Origin: Escherichia coli
Lineage (GTDB): Bacteria; Pseudomonadota; Gammaproteobacteria; Enterobacterales; Enterobacteriaceae
DNA: 64,000 nucleotides
Direction: 5' to 3' (one strand)
Assembly (NCBI RefSeq): GCF_044324875.1
Contig: NZ_CP172185.1
Part shown: piece by piece, positions 34,919 through 55,684 of the stretch
Numbering within the stretch: the stretch's first letter is position 1
Layout of the letters: each line of letters starts with the position of its first letter
Translations under genes and position numbers: made by a program
Notes under the pieces: model-generated
Told to the model about the DNA's origin: nothing
Database searches by the model: none
The model's input: the letters and a program-made list of their open reading frames with translations, nothing else

Positions 34919-34947
34919 ACAAAATCGCAGATGAGGCCCTAAAAAGC

Positions 34948-34998
34948 GCACGGACCGTCCCCTCGCCCCTCTGGGAGAGGGTTAGGGTGAGGGGAACA
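34948..34998. repeat. GC-rich extragenic repeat, copy 1 (ypfG/tktB convergent gap)
   Basis: gcacggaccgtcccctcgcccctctgggagagggttagggtgaggggaaca; about 92% identical to the copy at 48326-48377. Confidence 0.7.
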
Positions 34999-35005
34999 TA
35001 CAGCA

Positions 35006-44488: not shown

Positions 44489-44497
44489 TCACCCTGT

Positions 44498-44556
44498 GTG
44501 ACGTCGATTCGGGCGTCACGCTCTCTCCTTTTTCAGTTTACCTTCCGCGGAAGGTA
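44498..44556 (+). promoter_or_regulatory. Two stem-loops in the eutM-eutN spacer (candidate intra-operon attenuator or mRNA processing/stability element)
   Basis: Hairpin gtgacg/cgtcac followed by T-run, then 18-bp perfect palindrome taccttccgcggaaggta. Confidence 0.45.
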
Positions 44557-44594
44557 GGGGGAGCTTTTACCTGAAATACGCCACGGAGGCGGGT

Positions 44595-46307: not shown

Positions 46308-47144
46308 ATGGCGCACGACGAACAATGGCTCATCCCGCGTCTGCAAACGGCGGCAACGCTGTGTAACCAGACGCCTGCCGCAACGGAATCTCCGCTGTGG
46401 CTGGGGGTGGATCTGGGCACCTGCGATGTGGTGTCGATGGTTGTCGACCGCGACGGTCAGCCGGTGGCGGTATGCCTCGACTGGGCTGATGTGGTCCGCG
46501 ACGGCATCGTCTGGGATTTCTTCGGTGCGGTCACCATTGTTCGTCGCCATCTTGACACCCTCGAGCAGCAATTCGGTCGCCGTTTTAGCCATGCGGCGAC
46601 CTCTTTTCCTCCAGGTACGGACCCGCGTATTTCCATCAACGTGCTGGAGTCTGCCGGGCTGGAAGTGAGCCATGTGCTGGATGAGCCAACCGCAGTCGCG
46701 GATCTGCTGCAACTGGACAACGCCGGTGTAGTGGATATCGGCGGCGGCACCACCGGCATTGCCATCGTGAAAAAGGGCAAGGTGACTTACTCGGCAGATG
46801 AAGCCACCGGCGGACATCACATCTCTCTGACTCTCGCCGGAAATCGTCGTATTTCGCTGGAGGAGGCAGAGCAGTACAAGCGCGGTCACGGTGAAGAGAT
46901 TTGGCCCGCGGTGAAACCGGTGTACGAAAAAATGGCGGACATTGTCGCCCGGCATATTGAAGGGCAGGGCATTACTGATTTATGGCTGGCGGGCGGCTCT
47001 TGTATGCAACCGGGCGTGGCGGAACTGTTTCGCAAACAATTCCCGGCGTTACAGGTGCATTTACCGCAGCACAGTTTGTTTATGACCCCGCTGGCGATCG
47101 CCAGTAGCGGGCGAGAGAAAGCGGAGGGGATCTATGCAAAATGA
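46308..47144 (+). CDS. eutJ: Ethanolamine utilisation chaperone-like protein EutJ (actin/Hsp70 fold)
   Basis: 278 aa; VDIGGGTTGIA phosphate-binding loop. Confidence 0.92.
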   Translation: MAHDEQWLIPRLQTAATLCNQTPAATESPLWLGVDLGTCDVVSMVVDRDGQPVAVCLDWADVVRDGIVWDFFGAVTIVRRHLDTLEQQFGRRFSHAATSFPPGTDPRISINVLESAGLEVSHVLDEPTAVADLLQLDNAGVVDIGGGTTGIAIVKKGKVTYSADEATGGHHISLTLAGNRRISLEEAEQYKRGHGEEIWPAVKPVYEKMADIVARHIEGQGITDLWLAGGSCMQPGVAELFRKQFPALQVHLPQHSLFMTPLAIASSGREKAEGIYAK

Positions 47145-48321
47145 ATTGCAGACCGCGCTCTTTCAGGCGTTCGATACCCTGAATCTGCAACGGGTAAAAA
47201 CATTTAGCGTTCCACCGGTGACGCTTTGCGGTCCGGGCGCGGTGAGCAGTTGTGGGCAGCAAGCGCAAACGCGTGGGCTGAAACATCTGTTCGTGATGGC
47301 AGACAGCTTTTTGCATCAGGCAGGGATGACCGCCGGGCTGACGCGTAGCCTGGCCGTTAAAGGTATCGCCATGACGCTCTGGCCATGTCCGGTGGGCGAA
47401 CCATGCATCACCGACGTGTGTGCAGCCGTGGCGCAGTTGCGTGAATCAGGCTGTGACGGGGTGATTGCGTTTGGCGGCGGCTCGGTGCTGGATGCAGCAA
47501 AAGCCGTGGCGTTGCTGGTGACGAACCCGGATAGCACGCTGGCAGAGATGTCAGAAACCAGCGTTCTGCAACCGCGCCTGCCGTTGATTGCCATTCCAAC
47601 GACCGCCGGAACCGGCTCTGAAACCACCAACGTAACGGTGATTATCGACGCGGTGAGCGGGCGCAAGCAGGTGTTAGCCCATGCCTCGCTGATGCCGGAT
47701 GTGGCGATTCTCGACGCTGCGCTGACCGAAGGCGTGCCGTCGCATGTCACGGCGATGACCGGTATCGACGCGTTAACCCATGCTATTGAAGCGTACAGCG
47801 CGCTGAACGCCACACCGTTTACCGACAGCCTGGCGATTGGTGCCATTGCGATGATTGGCAAATCGCTGCCGAAAGCGGTGGGCTACGGTCACGACCTTGC
47901 CGCCCGCGAGAGCATGTTGCTGGCTTCATGTATGGCGGGAATGGCGTTTTCCAGTGCGGGGCTTGGGTTGTGCCACGCGATGGCGCATCAGCCAGGGGCG
48001 GCGCTGCATATTCCGCACGGTCTGGCGAACGCCATGCTACTGCCAACGGTGATGGAGTTTAACCGGATGGTCTGTCGTGAACGCTTTAGTCAGATTGGTC
48101 GGGCGCTGCGAACTAAAAAATCCGACGATCGTGACGCTATTAACGCGGTAAGTGAGCTGATTGCGGAAGTCGGGATTGGTAAACGACTGGGCGATATTGG
48201 TGCGACATCTGCGCATTACGGCGCATGGGCGCAGGCCGCGCTGGAAGATATTTGTCTGCGCAGCAACCCGCGTACCGCCAGCCTGGAGCAGATTATTGGT
48301 CTGTATGCTGCGGCGCAATAA
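47134..48321 (+). CDS. eutG: Iron-containing alcohol dehydrogenase EutG
   Basis: 395 aa; GGGSVLD motif; overlaps eutJ 3' end by 11 nt. Confidence 0.93.
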   Translation: MQNELQTALFQAFDTLNLQRVKTFSVPPVTLCGPGAVSSCGQQAQTRGLKHLFVMADSFLHQAGMTAGLTRSLAVKGIAMTLWPCPVGEPCITDVCAAVAQLRESGCDGVIAFGGGSVLDAAKAVALLVTNPDSTLAEMSETSVLQPRLPLIAIPTTAGTGSETTNVTVIIDAVSGRKQVLAHASLMPDVAILDAALTEGVPSHVTAMTGIDALTHAIEAYSALNATPFTDSLAIGAIAMIGKSLPKAVGYGHDLAARESMLLASCMAGMAFSSAGLGLCHAMAHQPGAALHIPHGLANAMLLPTVMEFNRMVCRERFSQIGRALRTKKSDDRDAINAVSELIAEVGIGKRLGDIGATSAHYGAWAQAALEDICLRSNPRTASLEQIIGLYAAAQ

Positions 48322-48325
48322 AAGT

Positions 48326-48440
48326 GTACGGACAGTCCCCTCGCCCCTTTGGGGAGAGGGTTAGGGTGAGGGGAACAGAGTCGCGCCGGTGCAAATAATT
48401 ACCCTCACCCCGACCCCTCGGCTTCCAGAGTGAGGGAAAA
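48326..48440. repeat. GC-rich extragenic repeat, copy 2 plus partial inverted copy (eutG-eutH gap)
   Basis: gtacggacagtcccctcgcccctttggggagagggttagggtgaggggaaca, then ccctcaccc 28 nt downstream as an inverted partner of gggtgaggg. Confidence 0.7.
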
Positions 48441-48490
48441 ACCCACTTTCAGCATTGGCAATAAATAACAACTAACAGGGAGTAAAGGCG

Positions 48491-49717
48491 ATGGGAATTA
48501 ACGAAATCATCATGTACATCATGATGTTCTTTATGCTGATAGCTGCCGTAGACAGGATCCTGTCGCAGTTCGGCGGTTCTGCTCGTTTCCTCGGTAAGTT
48601 CGGTAAAAGTATCGAAGGATCAGGCGGTCAGTTCGAAGAAGGCTTTATGGCAATGGGCGCACTGGGCCTGGCGATGGTCGGTATGACCGCGCTGGCACCG
48701 GTACTGGCTCACGTACTCGGGCCGGTGATTATCCCGGTTTACGAAATGCTCGGCGCAAACCCATCGATGTTCGCCGGAACACTGCTGGCGTGCGATATGG
48801 GCGGCTTCTTCCTCGCCAAAGAGCTGGCGGGCGGCGACGTAGCAGCGTGGCTATACTCTGGGTTAATTCTCGGGTCGATGATGGGGCCAACGATTGTGTT
48901 TTCCATTCCGGTGGCGCTCGGCATTATCGAACCTTCTGACCGTCGTTATCTGGCGCTCGGCGTGCTGGCGGGCATTGTGACCATTCCGATTGGCTGTATT
49001 GCCGGTGGTCTGGTGGCTATGTATTCCGGTGTGCAGATCAACGGTCAGCCAGTGGAATTCACCTTTGCCCTGATCCTGATGAACATGATCCCGGTACTTA
49101 TCGTCGCGGTACTGGTGGCGCTGGGGCTGAAATTCATCCCGGAAAAAATGATCAACGGCTTCCAGATCTTCGCCAAATTCCTCGTTGCATTGATCACCCT
49201 CGGTCTTGCCGCTGCGGTAGTGAAATTCCTGCTCGGTTGGGAACTGATCCCCGGTCTGGATCCGATCTTCATGGCTCCAGGCGATAAACCCGGTGAAGTG
49301 ATGCGCGCCATTGAAGTTATCGGTTCTATCTCCTGCGTGCTGTTAGGGGCGTACCCGATGGTACTGCTGCTGACCCGCTGGTTTGAAAAACCGCTGATGA
49401 GCGTCGGTAAGGTGCTGAATATGAACAACATCGCGGCAGCTGGCATGGTGGCAACGCTTGCCAACAACATCCCAATGTTTGGCATGATGAAGCAGATGGA
49501 TACCCGCGGCAAAGTCATCAACTGCGCCTTCGCCGTTTCCGCTGCTTTCGCCCTGGGTGACCACTTAGGCTTCGCCGCTGCCAACATGAACGCCATGATT
49601 TTCCCGATGATTGTCGGCAAGTTGATCGGCGGCGTAACGGCGATTGGCGTGGCGATGATGCTGGTGCCAAAAGAAGACGCGACCGCGGCCAAAACCGAAG
49701 CGGAGGCACAATCGTGA
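48491..49717 (+). CDS. eutH: Ethanolamine permease EutH
   Basis: 408 aa polytopic membrane protein. Confidence 0.93.
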   Translation: MGINEIIMYIMMFFMLIAAVDRILSQFGGSARFLGKFGKSIEGSGGQFEEGFMAMGALGLAMVGMTALAPVLAHVLGPVIIPVYEMLGANPSMFAGTLLACDMGGFFLAKELAGGDVAAWLYSGLILGSMMGPTIVFSIPVALGIIEPSDRRYLALGVLAGIVTIPIGCIAGGLVAMYSGVQINGQPVEFTFALILMNMIPVLIVAVLVALGLKFIPEKMINGFQIFAKFLVALITLGLAAAVVKFLLGWELIPGLDPIFMAPGDKPGEVMRAIEVIGSISCVLLGAYPMVLLLTRWFEKPLMSVGKVLNMNNIAAAGMVATLANNIPMFGMMKQMDTRGKVINCAFAVSAAFALGDHLGFAAANMNAMIFPMIVGKLIGGVTAIGVAMMLVPKEDATAAKTEAEAQS

Positions 49718-51117
49718 ACACTCGCCAGCTACTGAGCGTCGGTATCGATATCGGCACCACCACCACCCAGGTGATCTTCTCCCACCTGGAGCTGGTTAAC
49801 CGTGCGGCGGTGTCGCAGGTGCCGCGCTACGAATTCATCAAACGCGAAATTAGCTGGCAAAGCCCGGTGTTCTTTACCCCTGTCGATAAACAGGGTGGTT
49901 TAAAAGAAGCGGAACTGAAATCGCTGATTTTAGAGCAATATCAGGCTGCGGGCATTGCGCCGGAAAGCGTTGATTCTGGTGCCATCATCATCACCGGTGA
50001 AAGCGCGAAAACCCGCAACGCTCGCCCGGCGGTGATGACGCTCTCCCAGTCGCTGGGCGATTTTGTCGTCGCCAGCGCCGGGCCGCATCTCGAATCCGTG
50101 ATCGCCGGTCACGGTGCCGGGGCGCAAACCCTTTCTGAACAACGGCTGTGTCGGGTACTGAATATCGACATCGGCGGTGGCACCGCGAACTACGCCCTGT
50201 TCGATGCCGGAAAAATCAGCGGCACTGCCTGCCTCAACGTCGGTGGTCGCCTGCTGGAAACCGACAGCCAGGGGCGCGTGGTTTACGCTCATAAACCGGG
50301 GCAGATGATTGTGGATGAGTGCTTCGGTGCAGGCAGTGACGCCCGTTCGCTGACCGGCGCGCAGCTGGTGCAGGTTACCCGCCGGATGGCAGAGCTGATT
50401 GTCGAAGTGATTGACGGAACGCTCTCGCCGCTCGCGCAGGCATTAATGCAAACCGGTTTGCTGCCCGCAGGTGTTACGCCCGAAATCATTACGCTTTCTG
50501 GCGGCGTGGGCGAATGTTATCGCCACCAGCCCGCCGCCCCGTTCTGTTTTGCCGATATCGGCCCGCTGCTGGCAACGGCGCTGTATGACCATCCGCGCCT
50601 GCGTGAGATGAACGTGCAGTTTCCGGCGCAAACCGTGCGCGCCACGGTGATTGGCGCGGGTGCACATACCCTTTCGCTCTCTGGCAGCACAATCTGGCTG
50701 GAGGGCGTCCAACTGCCGCTGCGCAATTTGCCGGTGGCGATCCCGATTGATGAAACGGATCTGGTGAGTGCCTGGCAACAGGCGCTGATTCAGCTGGATC
50801 TTGATCCCAAAACTGACGCGTACGTGCTGGCGCTTCCCGCCTCGCTGCCTGTGCGTTACGCCGCGGTACTGACGGTCATCAACGCGCTGGTCGATTTCGT
50901 CGCGCGTTTTCCGAATCCGCATCCCCTGTTGGTGGTGGCCGGGCAGGACTTTGGTAAAGCTCTGGGCATGTTGTTGCGCCCACAGCTACAACAACTCCCG
51001 TTGGCAGTCATTGACGAAGTGATTGTCCGCGCGGGGGACTATATCGACATTGGTACGCCTCTTTTTGGCGGATCGGTTGTGCCGGTGACGGTGAAATCAC
51101 TCGCATTTCCTTCCTGA
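49714..51117 (+). CDS. eutA: Ethanolamine ammonia-lyase reactivating factor EutA
   Basis: 467 aa; 4-nt overlap with eutH stop. Confidence 0.93.
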   Translation: MNTRQLLSVGIDIGTTTTQVIFSHLELVNRAAVSQVPRYEFIKREISWQSPVFFTPVDKQGGLKEAELKSLILEQYQAAGIAPESVDSGAIIITGESAKTRNARPAVMTLSQSLGDFVVASAGPHLESVIAGHGAGAQTLSEQRLCRVLNIDIGGGTANYALFDAGKISGTACLNVGGRLLETDSQGRVVYAHKPGQMIVDECFGAGSDARSLTGAQLVQVTRRMAELIVEVIDGTLSPLAQALMQTGLLPAGVTPEIITLSGGVGECYRHQPAAPFCFADIGPLLATALYDHPRLREMNVQFPAQTVRATVIGAGAHTLSLSGSTIWLEGVQLPLRNLPVAIPIDETDLVSAWQQALIQLDLDPKTDAYVLALPASLPVRYAAVLTVINALVDFVARFPNPHPLLVVAGQDFGKALGMLLRPQLQQLPLAVIDEVIVRAGDYIDIGTPLFGGSVVPVTVKSLAFPS

Positions 51118-51128
51118 GGGAACGACTT

Positions 51129-52496
51129 ATGAAACTAAAGACCACATTGTTCGGCAATGTATATCAGTTTAAGGATGTAAAAGAGGTGCTGGCTAAAGCC
51201 AACGAACTGCGTTCGGGGGATGTGCTGGCGGGCGTCGCAGCGGCAAGCTCACAGGAGCGCGTGGCGGCAAAGCAGGTGTTGTCGGAAATGACCGTAGCGG
51301 ACATCCGCAATAATCCGGTGATTGCTTATGAAGATGACTGCGTGACGCGGCTGATTCAGGACGACGTTAACGAAACGGCCTACAACCAGATTAAAAACTG
51401 GAGCATCAGCGAACTGCGTGAATACGTCCTGAGCGACGAAACCAGCGTTGACGACATTGCCTTTACCCGCAAAGGGTTGACCTCGGAAGTGGTCGCGGCG
51501 GTAGCGAAGATTTGCTCCAACGCGGACCTGATCTACGGCGCGAAGAAAATGCCGGTGATCAAAAAGGCCAATACCACCATCGGTATTCCGGGCACCTTCA
51601 GCGCCCGCTTGCAGCCAAACGACACCCGTGACGACGTGCAAAGTATCGCCGCGCAAATCTACGAAGGGCTTTCTTTCGGGGTGGGCGATGCGGTGATCGG
51701 CGTTAACCCGGTGACTGACGACGTGGAAAACTTAAGCCGCGTGTTGGACACCATCTATGGCGTGATCGACAAATACAACATTCCGACCCAGGGCTGCGTG
51801 CTGGCGCACGTCACCACCCAGATTGAAGCAATTCGTCGCGGCGCGCCTGGCGGACTGATTTTCCAGAGTATCTGCGGCAGCGAAAAAGGGCTGAAAGAGT
51901 TTGGCGTGGAACTGGCGATGCTCGACGAAGCGCGCGCAGTGGGCGCGGAGTTCAACCGTATCGCCGGGGAAAACTGCCTCTACTTCGAAACCGGACAAGG
52001 CTCTGCGCTATCCGCTGGCGCTAACTTCGGCGCAGACCAGGTGACGATGGAAGCGCGTAACTACGGGCTGGCGCGTCATTACGATCCGTTTATCGTCAAC
52101 ACCGTGGTCGGCTTTATTGGGCCGGAGTATCTCTACAACGACCGCCAGATTATCCGTGCGGGCTTAGAAGATCACTTTATGGGCAAGCTGAGCGGCATCT
52201 CTATGGGCTGTGACTGCTGCTACACCAACCACGCTGACGCTGACGCTGACCAGAACCTCAACGAAAACCTCATGATCCTGCTCGCCACCGCAGGCTGCAA
52301 CTACATCATGGGGATGCCGCTGGGCGATGACATCATGCTCAACTATCAGACCACCGCATTCCACGACACTGCCACTGTGCGTCAGTTACTCAACCTGCGC
52401 CCGTCACCGGAGTTTGAACGCTGGCTGGAAAGCATGGGCATTATGGCAAACGGTCGCCTGACCAAACGGGCGGGCGATCCGTCACTGTTCTTCTGA
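51129..52496 (+). CDS. eutB: Ethanolamine ammonia-lyase large (heavy) subunit
   Basis: 455 aa from ATG 51129 (MKLKTTLFGNVYQFKDVKEV...); contains in-frame (GCTGAC)3 repeat encoding ADADAD. Confidence 0.95.
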   Translation: MKLKTTLFGNVYQFKDVKEVLAKANELRSGDVLAGVAAASSQERVAAKQVLSEMTVADIRNNPVIAYEDDCVTRLIQDDVNETAYNQIKNWSISELREYVLSDETSVDDIAFTRKGLTSEVVAAVAKICSNADLIYGAKKMPVIKKANTTIGIPGTFSARLQPNDTRDDVQSIAAQIYEGLSFGVGDAVIGVNPVTDDVENLSRVLDTIYGVIDKYNIPTQGCVLAHVTTQIEAIRRGAPGGLIFQSICGSEKGLKEFGVELAMLDEARAVGAEFNRIAGENCLYFETGQGSALSAGANFGADQVTMEARNYGLARHYDPFIVNTVVGFIGPEYLYNDRQIIRAGLEDHFMGKLSGISMGCDCCYTNHADADADQNLNENLMILLATAGCNYIMGMPLGDDIMLNYQTTAFHDTATVRQLLNLRPSPEFERWLESMGIMANGRLTKRAGDPSLFF

Positions 52497-54631: not shown

Positions 54632-55684
54632 ATGAAAAAGACCCGTACAGCCAATTTGCACCATCTTTATCATGAACCCTTACCCGAAAACCTGAAGCTC
54701 ACGCCGAAGGTCGAAGTGGATAATGTTCATCAACGACAGACAACGGACGTCTATGAACATGCTTTGACAATTACCGCCTGGCAGCAGATTTACGATCAGC
54801 TGCATCCGGGCAAGTTTCATGGTGAATTTACGGAAATTCTACTCGATGATATTCAGGTTTTTCGTGAATACACTGGTCTGGCGCTGCGTCAGTCGTGCCT
54901 GGTCTGGCCGAACTCGTTCTGGTTTGGCATTCCGGCGACGCGCGGTGAGCTGGGATTTATCGGTTCGCAATGTCTGGGAAGCGCAGAAATTGCGACGCGC
55001 CCGGGTGGAACTGAGTTTGAATTAAGTACGCCGGACGATTACACGATCCTTGGCGTAGTGCTTTCTGAAGATGTCATCACTCGTCAGGCTAACTTTTTGC
55101 ATAATCCGGATCGGGTATTACATATGCTGCGTAGCCAGTCGGCGCTGGAAGTGAAAGAGCAGCATAAAGCCGCGCTGTGGGGCTTTGTCCAACAGGCGCT
55201 GGCGACGTTTTGCGAGAACCCGGAAAATCTCCATCAGCCTGCAGTGCGAAAAGTGCTGGGGGATAATTTGCTCATGGCGATGGGGGCGATGCTGGAAGAA
55301 GCGCAGCCGATGATGACGGCGGAAAGCATCAGTCATCAGAGTTACCGTCGATTGCTTTCCCGCGCCCGTGAATATGTGCTGGAAAACATGTCCGAACCGG
55401 TGACGGTGCTGGACTTGTGTAATCAACTGCATGTCAGCCGCCGCACGCTACAAAACGCGTTTCACGCCATTTTGGGCATTGGTCCGAACGCGTGGCTGAA
55501 ACGTATTCGCCTGAACGCCGTGCGCCGCGAACTCATAAGTCCGTGGTCACAAAGCACAACGGTAAAAGACGCCGCCATGCAGTGGGGATTCTGGCATCTT
55601 GGGCAATTTGCCACGGATTATCAGCAACTGTTTGCCGAGAAGCCGTCACTGACGCTGCATCAGCGGATGCGAGAGTGGGGGTGA
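54632..55684 (+). CDS. eutR: AraC-family transcriptional activator of the eut operon
   Basis: 350 aa; C-terminal AraC-type HTH. Confidence 0.93.

Follow-up and report, generated by a model that had tools for sequence, protein, structure and literature searches.

The forward strand of the window (the whole 64,000-nucleotide stretch of Escherichia coli DNA analyzed here, from contig NZ_CP172185.1) carries, between approximately 40.8 and 55.7 kb, a chain of ORFs whose gene order is that of an intact eut operon. Four of these ORFs, coding for EutJ, EutG, EutH and EutA, were identified by full-length NCBIfam equivalog matches, and eutE and eutB lie at the corresponding sites according to the annotation of matching E. 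coli records. The features surrounding the spacer between eutG and eutH are the following:

46308-47144, + strand: eutJ (NCBIfam equivalog match)
47134-48321, + strand: eutG, ethanol dehydrogenase (NCBIfam NF011998 equivalog, 890 bits, full length); stop codon TAA at 48319-48321
48322-48490, + strand: eutG-eutH spacer, 169 bp
48459-48490, + strand: conserved eutH leader CAATAAATAACAACTAACAGGGAGTAAAGGCG, 32 bp, delimited by spacer comparison, with the Shine-Dalgarno sequence GGGAG at 48478-48482
48491-49717, + strand: eutH, ethanolamine permease (NCBIfam NF011665 equivalog, 873 bits)
49714-51117, + strand: eutA (NCBIfam equivalog match)

At 169 bp the eutG-eutH gap is the widest in the eutS-eutR chain, as an earlier note made from this sequence had claimed; the eutM-eutN gap comes second with 106 bp, and the rest are of 45 bp or less. 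The eutM-eutN gap (44489-44594) holds two short palindromes, GTGACGTCGATTCGGGCGTCAC and CCTTCCGCGGAAGG, neither of which is a REP or a BoxC sequence. Further downstream, eutA and eutB are adjacent (49714-52496) with 11 bp between them, and the operon of the window runs without interruption; the K-12 eut operon carries the CPZ-55 prophage insertion near the eutA-eutB position.

Architecture of the repeat element and its second copy

A GC-rich repeat that itself contains inverted repeats takes up ~115 bp of the eutG-eutH spacer, in keeping with the description in the earlier note. Three inverted-repeat pairs are present: the first is formed by GGGTTAGGGTGAGGGGAA (48358-48375) and TTACCCTCACCCCGACCC (48399-48416), which show 83% complementarity over 18 nt, and the others lie at 48336-48346/48364-48374 and 48399-48408/48430-48439. 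Alignments with copies at other loci divide the element into the parts listed here together with the second copy in the window:

48322-48378, + strand: BoxC unit A with family-conserved flanks (AAAAGTGTACGGACAGT ... GGGGAACAG), from alignment with the K-12 gcvP-ygfF and sstT-alx copies, the cca-bacA copy and the second window copy
48338-48373, + strand: triplex-motif core of type A, CCCTCGCCC-CTTTG-GGGAGAGGG-TTA-GGGTGAGGG-G, an exact match to the TMECO consensus
48374-48401, + strand: family-typical linker between the inverted units, AACAGAGTCGCGCCGGTGCAAATAATTA, aligned with the linkers of the K-12 pairs
48402-48441, - strand: degenerate inverted type-B-like unit, aligned with the intact B units of the K-12 pairs
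34948-34998, + strand: second BoxC copy, a single type-A unit with its core at 34960-34993, between two convergent ORFs

The left extension of unit A is common to the aligned copies at other loci, and the linker is 25-28 nt long. An inverted-pair test showed that the A unit is intact and that the opposite-strand B unit can be aligned, yet is degenerate in its CCCTCACTC and GAGGGG blocks: read on the - strand it is CCCTCACTC-TGGAAGCC-GAGGGG-TCG-GGGTGAGGG, with a TCG loop, and it fails the strict consensus. The second copy (34948-34998) differs from 48326-48377 by 3 mismatches and 1 gap over 52 columns; this identity of ~92% agrees with the figure that the earlier note had given for a 50-bp core. 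The convergent ORFs around the second copy are annotated as ypfG and tkt (transketolase) at matching sites in E. coli genomes; judging from its K-12 position, we take the transketolase gene to be tktB. Both copies are thus intergenic, one between the eutG stop and the eutH start and the other between the convergent ORFs. The window contains the 9-mer GGGTGAGGG 4 times, where 0.31 occurrences would be expected. The occurrence at 55679 was rejected as a further BoxC copy because it stands alone, in the 3' end of the eutR ORF.

Identification of the element as a BoxC copy

The BoxC repeat, described in the 1990s, is the same as the PIT element (potential intrastrand triplex) of Hoyne and Maher and the TMECO triplex motif of Holder et al. 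(2015, PMC4666352). The TMECO consensus is 5'-CCCTCNCCC N3-6 GGGNGAGGG N3 GGGNGAGGG-3', with the second loop defining the type (TTA for type A and CCG for type B), and five K-12 loci have two inverted motifs, each pair consisting of one type A and one type B (PMC4666352). The pattern CCCTCNCCC-N3-6-GGGNGAGGG-N3-GGGNGAGGG has exactly two matches in the window, at 48338-48372 and 34960-34993, both of type A and on the + strand, and the full TMECO pattern was encountered 0 times in 100 shuffles of the sequence. Furthermore, the 36-nt core at 48338-48373 is identical to the parent of the mutated control oligonucleotide of the triplex study, CCCTCGCCCCTTTGGGGAGAGGGTTAGGGTGAGGGG (PMC4666352).

The similarity extends beyond the core: over its full length of ~115 bp, with flanks and linker, the eut element can be aligned with the K-12 gcvP-ygfF and sstT-alx pairs and also with the cca-bacA pair of non-K-12 strains. 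K-12 additionally has the motif beside fabI, the locus from which the name box C originates; Bergler et al. (1992), Bachellier et al. (1999) and Hoyne et al. (2000) reportedly also dealt with BoxC/PIT. In the listed rows of the supplement of PMC4666352, gcvP-ygfF corresponds to TMECO 10+11, sstT-alx to TMECO 12 and the fabI copy to TMECO 9. Among those listed rows there are no entries for eutG, eutH, tktB or ypfG, and the text of the same paper does not name the eutG-eutH locus.

The earlier note had asked for a genome-wide copy count, with restriction of the element to the two window loci speaking against a repeat family. Of the 5,426 complete E. coli genomes searched by BLAST with the 169-bp spacer, 5,425 gave hits, the median being 16 places per genome and the maximum 27; the total is 76,364 places, and 76,337 of these are chromosomal. 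The family is hence multi-copy and such a restriction does not apply. For comparison, about 20-30 interspersed copies per E. coli genome are characteristic of the family; its published copy count is 23 (PMC4666352), Holder et al. give 63 BoxC/TMECO loci, and in an independent survey BoxC appears among the known E. coli families, with a length of 56 bp and 32 copies (PMC2267715). The consensus match, the full alignment with named K-12 members and the copy number together establish that the Box C label, which had been suggested from likeness, is correct: the eutG-eutH element is an ordinary BoxC (PIT/TMECO) copy, with an apparent A+B inverted-pair layout.

Searches for other kinds of elements gave no competing assignment. 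Rfam in E-value mode returned nothing above threshold for 48000-48800; the best hits were sub-threshold miRNA and frameshift-element noise, with scores of 16.5-18.7 bits against gathering thresholds of 40-105 and E-values of at least 0.6 (best 0.61). REP consensus units in alternating orientation (GCCGGATG...CTTATCCGGCCTAC / GTAGG...CATCCGGC) were not found in 48322-48490; they are present in the allelic eutG-eutH spacers of other strains.

The eut copy resembles the rest of the BoxC/PIT/TMECO family in its exact type-A consensus, its intergenic location in a multi-copy family, its A+B-like arrangement of inverted units, its full-length alignment and its strain-variable locus, but differs in having a degenerate B unit and in lying within an operon, directly past a stop codon. 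The REP/BIME-2 arrays share with it the spacer that they occupy in other strains and their GC-rich, hairpin-forming and probably co-transcribed nature, but belong to an unrelated sequence family, with no GCCGGATG/GTAGG REP motifs in the window spacer. REPs have an associated transposase, TnpA-REP (RAYT); BoxC is not known to have a transposase partner. The MITEs and ERIC/IRU elements are comparable in being small non-coding interspersed repeats that form a long hairpin when transcribed and show presence/absence polymorphism, but the eut element has no identified target-site duplication or clear terminal inverted repeats. Two published findings bear on these comparisons, namely that REP/BIME-2 copy number differs between strains (PMC3333891) and that triplex motifs show no association with mobile elements (Holder et al., PMC4666352).

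Distribution and allelic states of the eutG-eutH spacer

BoxC is found between eutG and eutH in 303 of the 5,426 complete E. coli genomes (~6%), in one place each and with 94.7-99.4% identity; both flanks of the spacer were detected in 5,388 genomes. The window genome lies outside this collection, and its best matches therein are 98.9% identical over 20 kb, with best values of 99.4% for the spacer query (AST215) and 99.3% for ypfG-tktB (ST2747). Some of the carriers, such as PCN033 and an ST70 strain, presumably belong to phylogroup D. All 7 of the BoxC alleles compared agree in their junctions and in the degenerate B arm; they differ from each other by a few substitutions, one 1-bp deletion and one 6-bp slippage-type deletion (VCSW5). 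Three BoxC alleles have spacers that are 98.8% identical, and their eutG flanks are 92.8-99% identical to the window; this high spacer identity would fit either some constraint or a recent spread through recombination.

The VCSW5 deletion removes AGGGTT between direct repeats within the motif, and PCN033 has three substitutions, so that individual BoxC copies are seen to be decaying. Two of the PCN033 changes, a C to T in the pyrimidine block and a G to A in the first purine block, were considered as a compensatory pair and rejected: on inspection of the alignment the two positions are not Watson-Crick partners of each other, and the changes are therefore no evidence for a selected hairpin.

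All 6 of the non-BoxC alleles that were retrieved carry REP/BIME sequences in spacers of 99-515 bp that increase in steps of ~100 bp, with either one truncated unit (99 bp) or 1-5 tandem 100-bp units (116, 216, 316, 416 and 515 bp). These arrays begin 1-2 nt past the eutG stop codon, and in each tandem unit an inverted REP of z2-like type is joined by a short linker to a y-type REP, a layout that fits the description of BIME-2 (PMC3333891). The 32-bp eutH leader, CAATAAATAACAACTAACAGGGAGTAAAGGCG, is the only part of the spacer common to the BoxC and BIME alleles, and a related leader sequence, ...GACAGGGAGTAAGGGCT, is found in other genera. The linker segment GTCGCGCCGGTGCAAATAATT was examined as a possible relic of the BIME inter-unit linker CAGTGGCGCGGTGCAATT; this was rejected because the same linker belongs to BoxC pairs at unrelated loci.

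The comparison was extended to one genome per species with EutH, comprising 50 loci, of which 47 have a readable spacer. BLAST detected no BoxC in the 2.7-6.3 kb around eutH at any of these 50 loci. BIME arrays of 1-6 units between the same flanks were recovered in E1V33 and MOD1-EC7003 (both labelled Escherichia sp.), E. whittamii and 'E. coli' SCPM-O-B-8794, the EutG end of which is merely 91% identical. Citrobacter and Klebsiella mostly have their own REP pairs in this spacer, a single REP is present in S. enterica subsp. diarizonae (67 bp) and C. sedlakii (60 bp), and an essentially empty spacer of 27-32 bp is seen in five Citrobacter species, a Pluralibacter MAG and Yokenella. A comparison across Escherichia and Salmonella had been recommended earlier, and its outcome in the loci sampled is that the spacer holds BIMEs in other Escherichia and a single REP in S. 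enterica subsp. diarizonae, with BoxC seen in some E. coli.

From the distribution of these sequences we infer that an empty eutG-eutH spacer is viable, that REP/BIME occupancy was probably ancestral for Escherichia and that the BoxC allele would represent a single derived replacement within E. coli. The derived and lineage-restricted status of BoxC follows from the presence of BIMEs in the 6 other alleles and in other Escherichia, together with the empty spacers of some genera. Given the empty, BIME (1-6 units) and BoxC states, the site can be viewed as a natural empty/REP/BoxC polymorphism. A separate observation concerns contig DXKH01000140.1, from the 'Citrobacter sp.' MAG HRGM_Genome_0066, which codes for an EutH 100% identical to that of the window and whose spacer holds a single BIME unit of the E. 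coli type; the contig appears to come from Escherichia and to have been binned or labelled as Citrobacter.

Alternation of BoxC and REP elements at other loci

REP/BIME sequences are found at the exact position of BoxC in non-BoxC strains at three of the six BoxC loci examined, namely eutG-eutH, ypfG-tktB and cca-bacA. In the ypfG-tktB spacer (34919-35005 of the window) K-12 and other E. coli carry one or two REPs together with short ATCAGCATCCGGCA tandem repeats; the surroundings of the window copy are ~92% identical to most E. coli and 99.3% identical to strain ST2747. The cca-bacA spacer holds the BoxC A+B pair in 1,260 genomes; K-12-like strains have a BIME of three REPs there, and ST131 has just one REP.

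Alternation as a general rule was rejected, because the other three loci show indels, collapse or an unrelated insert. Larger indels of the region are seen at gcvP-ygfF, where homology stops just before the motif and ST131 (one strain read) has no ygfF, and are suggested at fabI-ycjD, where ~2,000 genomes match the fabI side alone. At sstT-alx, one allele (AVS0710) has an internal deletion that converts the A+B pair into a plain CCCCTCGCCCC/GGGGAGAGGG hairpin, and in strain ES11 the pair and the adjacent upstream sequence give way to an unrelated, partly very GC-rich insert of ~430 bp (e.g. GGGGGCGGCCAATCGCCGCCGCCCCC). Collapse of a pair into a plain hairpin is the 'palindrome effect' of Holder et al. 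(PMC4666352).

Weak, possible REP-like remnants lie beside BoxC at ypfG-tktB and at right-hand junctions. The one on the left side at ypfG-tktB, with ~65% identity over 31 nt in a global alignment of the BoxC and REP alleles, is suggestive, and it is not claimed here because such similarity is too weak for GC-rich sequence. It appears quite unlikely to us that BoxC and REP/BIME compete for intergenic slots, with BoxC spreading by inserting into or replacing REPs; the alternation may merely reflect the tolerance of both families at the same gene 3' ends. If competition were nonetheless true, with REPs serving as targets or with BoxC mobilised by the REP transposase or by template switches at REP hairpins, it would supply a mobility mechanism for a 30-year-old orphan repeat, and the alternation at several loci offers a cheap lead on BoxC movement. 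Bachellier et al. are said to have reported boxC insertions at BIME loci already in 1997 (Genetics 145:551), on account of which the alternation is only partly new.

Transcription and predicted folding

A scan of the eutG-eutH spacer for sigma-70-like promoters found none, and a terminator scan found none in the spacer, with no T-run past any stem and a weak AT-rich stem within eutH as the source of its sole hits. As the element lies inside an operon and has neither promoter nor terminator, it is likely to be co-transcribed with its neighbors; the purine-rich strand of the motif is the coding (non-template) strand, and so the mRNA bears the same sequence. The BoxC element is predicted to fold as RNA into an imperfect hairpin of ~95 nt (-50.9 kcal/mol, z = -2.2). 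This is weaker than the predicted fold of an intact K-12 pair (-76.6 kcal/mol, z = -6.6) because the B unit has decayed, and is comparable to that of the single BIME unit of eutG-eutH (-44.4 kcal/mol, z = -2.7). The predicted fold of the whole spacer is not significant (z = -1.24, ensemble frequency 0.002); in both its minimum-energy and centroid versions, the GGGAGU of the Shine-Dalgarno region is paired with the B-arm sequence GCUUCC.

In earlier tests PIT elements had no promoter or terminator activity and left RNA polymerase unaffected (summarised in PMC4666352). Oligonucleotides of the motif form an intrastrand purine-motif triplex in vitro as single-stranded DNA, purine-motif triplexes are absent in RNA, and sequence variability is higher around triplex motifs than at control sites (PMC4666352). 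At 48351-48373 the purine blocks and the neighboring G runs also fit a G-quadruplex, GGGG AGA GGG TTA GGG TGA GGGG, which includes TTAGGG. For a DNA oligonucleotide, NMR argued for a triplex and against a quadruplex (Holder et al., PMC4666352).

A probable passenger repeat in a permissive slot

The explanation that we favor, and hold to be very probable, is that the element is a BoxC copy, derived by replacement of a BIME, which persists as a passenger repeat in a permissive slot. A BoxC pair would have replaced the BIME-2-like REP array between eutG and eutH in the common ancestor of a minority of E. coli strains, sparing just the 32 bp next to the eutH start codon, with the ribosome-binding site. 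The pair would have comprised an intact type-A unit on the + strand, the linker and an inverted type-B unit that has since decayed. Co-transcribed with the eut operon, it would fold in the mRNA into the imperfect hairpin of ~95 nt, which might act like a REP as a passive barrier to 3'-to-5' exonucleases and thereby prolong the life of the upstream eutS-eutG segment; that such an effect would be large enough to measure is conceivable but rather doubtful on our analysis. At the DNA level, the purine-rich non-template strand may form an intrastrand triplex or hairpin when single-stranded, a property that the literature associates with instability of the local sequence and not with control of genes. 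We infer neutrality, and we lean towards the view that the element at eutG-eutH is a tolerated passenger with no dedicated regulatory role. This reading was chosen on the strength of the null results of published PIT tests and the finding of no stable triplex in vivo.

The earlier note had proposed that the element could partition or stabilise the polycistronic mRNA, a role that is plausible at most. About 94% of E. coli lack BoxC at this site and presumably carry REP/BIME there, the 50 loci from other genomes lack it as well, and some spacers are empty; moreover, the scans revealed no terminator or promoter, the decayed B arm gives a weaker hairpin, and the published PIT tests were null. A stronger version of this idea, which we regard as improbable, would have a structured eutG-eutH spacer be required, for segmental stability or for uncoupled translation of eutH, with BoxC substituting for the REP/BIME hairpins. 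Some hairpin-forming repeat is present in this spacer across most of the Enterobacteriaceae sampled, including nearly all Escherichia and Klebsiella and most Citrobacter, and this recurrence could reflect selection for structure, not tolerance. Both the BoxC element (z = -2.2) and the BIME unit (z = -2.7) are predicted to fold better than shuffled sequences, the B-arm GCUUCC is predicted to pair with the Shine-Dalgarno GGGAGU in the whole-spacer folds, and REP hairpins have been reported to influence mRNA stability (cited in PMC3184786). However, a requirement of this kind is difficult to reconcile with the empty spacers of 27-32 bp in five Citrobacter species, the Pluralibacter MAG and Yokenella, with the lone REP of S. 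enterica diarizonae and C. sedlakii, or with BIME copy numbers that range from 1 to 6 with no apparent constraint. The whole-spacer fold (z = -1.24, ensemble frequency 0.002), the decayed B arm and the alleles with a 6-bp deletion or several substitutions likewise argue against it, as does the published finding that PIT elements act neither as promoters nor as terminators and do not affect RNA polymerase (PMC4666352).

We also consider it unlikely that the element acts at the level of DNA, with a triplex of the non-template strand, a cruciform or a G-quadruplex that arises during transcription or replication of eut, stalls polymerases and drives rearrangement. The highly polymorphic nature of the eutG-eutH spacer, the slippage-type 6-bp deletion within the motif in VCSW5, the collapse of the pair to a plain hairpin in an sstT-alx allele and the fit of GGGGAGAGGGTTAGGGTGAGGGG to the G-quadruplex pattern are all consistent with such an activity. 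Yet the length variation at this site is mostly BIME copy number in strains without BoxC, and the element itself is single-copy and 94.7-99.4% conserved among its 303 carriers. Furthermore, triplexes were found neither by in vivo DMS footprinting nor in duplex DNA, and NMR argued against a G-quadruplex (PMC4666352). A role as terminator or attenuator within the operon, or as internal promoter serving eutH and the genes after it, as might be suspected from a large GC-rich hairpin between two genes of one operon, is extremely improbable and essentially refuted by the sequence, there being no T-run past the stems, no terminator in the spacer and no promoter-like sites, and PIT elements were inactive as both in published assays (PMC4666352).

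Implications for annotation and for repeat effects

The element, the pair layout and the strain variability are all already known, the BoxC family dating from publications of the 1990s, with further characterisation in 2000-2002 and 2015, and the passenger reading has little import for wider biology. Its consequence for annotation is that the gap in the eut operon should be regarded as a BoxC pair rather than a candidate regulator. The three states of the spacer (empty, one to six REP/BIME units, and the BoxC pair) possibly provide a clean test bed for the effects of repeats on a polycistronic mRNA. The alleles also differ in the distance from the eutG stop codon to the first stem, which is 2-3 nt for the REP stem of the BIME alleles versus ~15 nt in the BoxC allele. 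Liang, Rudd and Deutscher (2015) reportedly found that REPs within ~15 nt of a stop codon lower upstream expression via ribosome stalling, and the difference in stop-to-stem distance between the BoxC and BIME alleles is perhaps worth testing.
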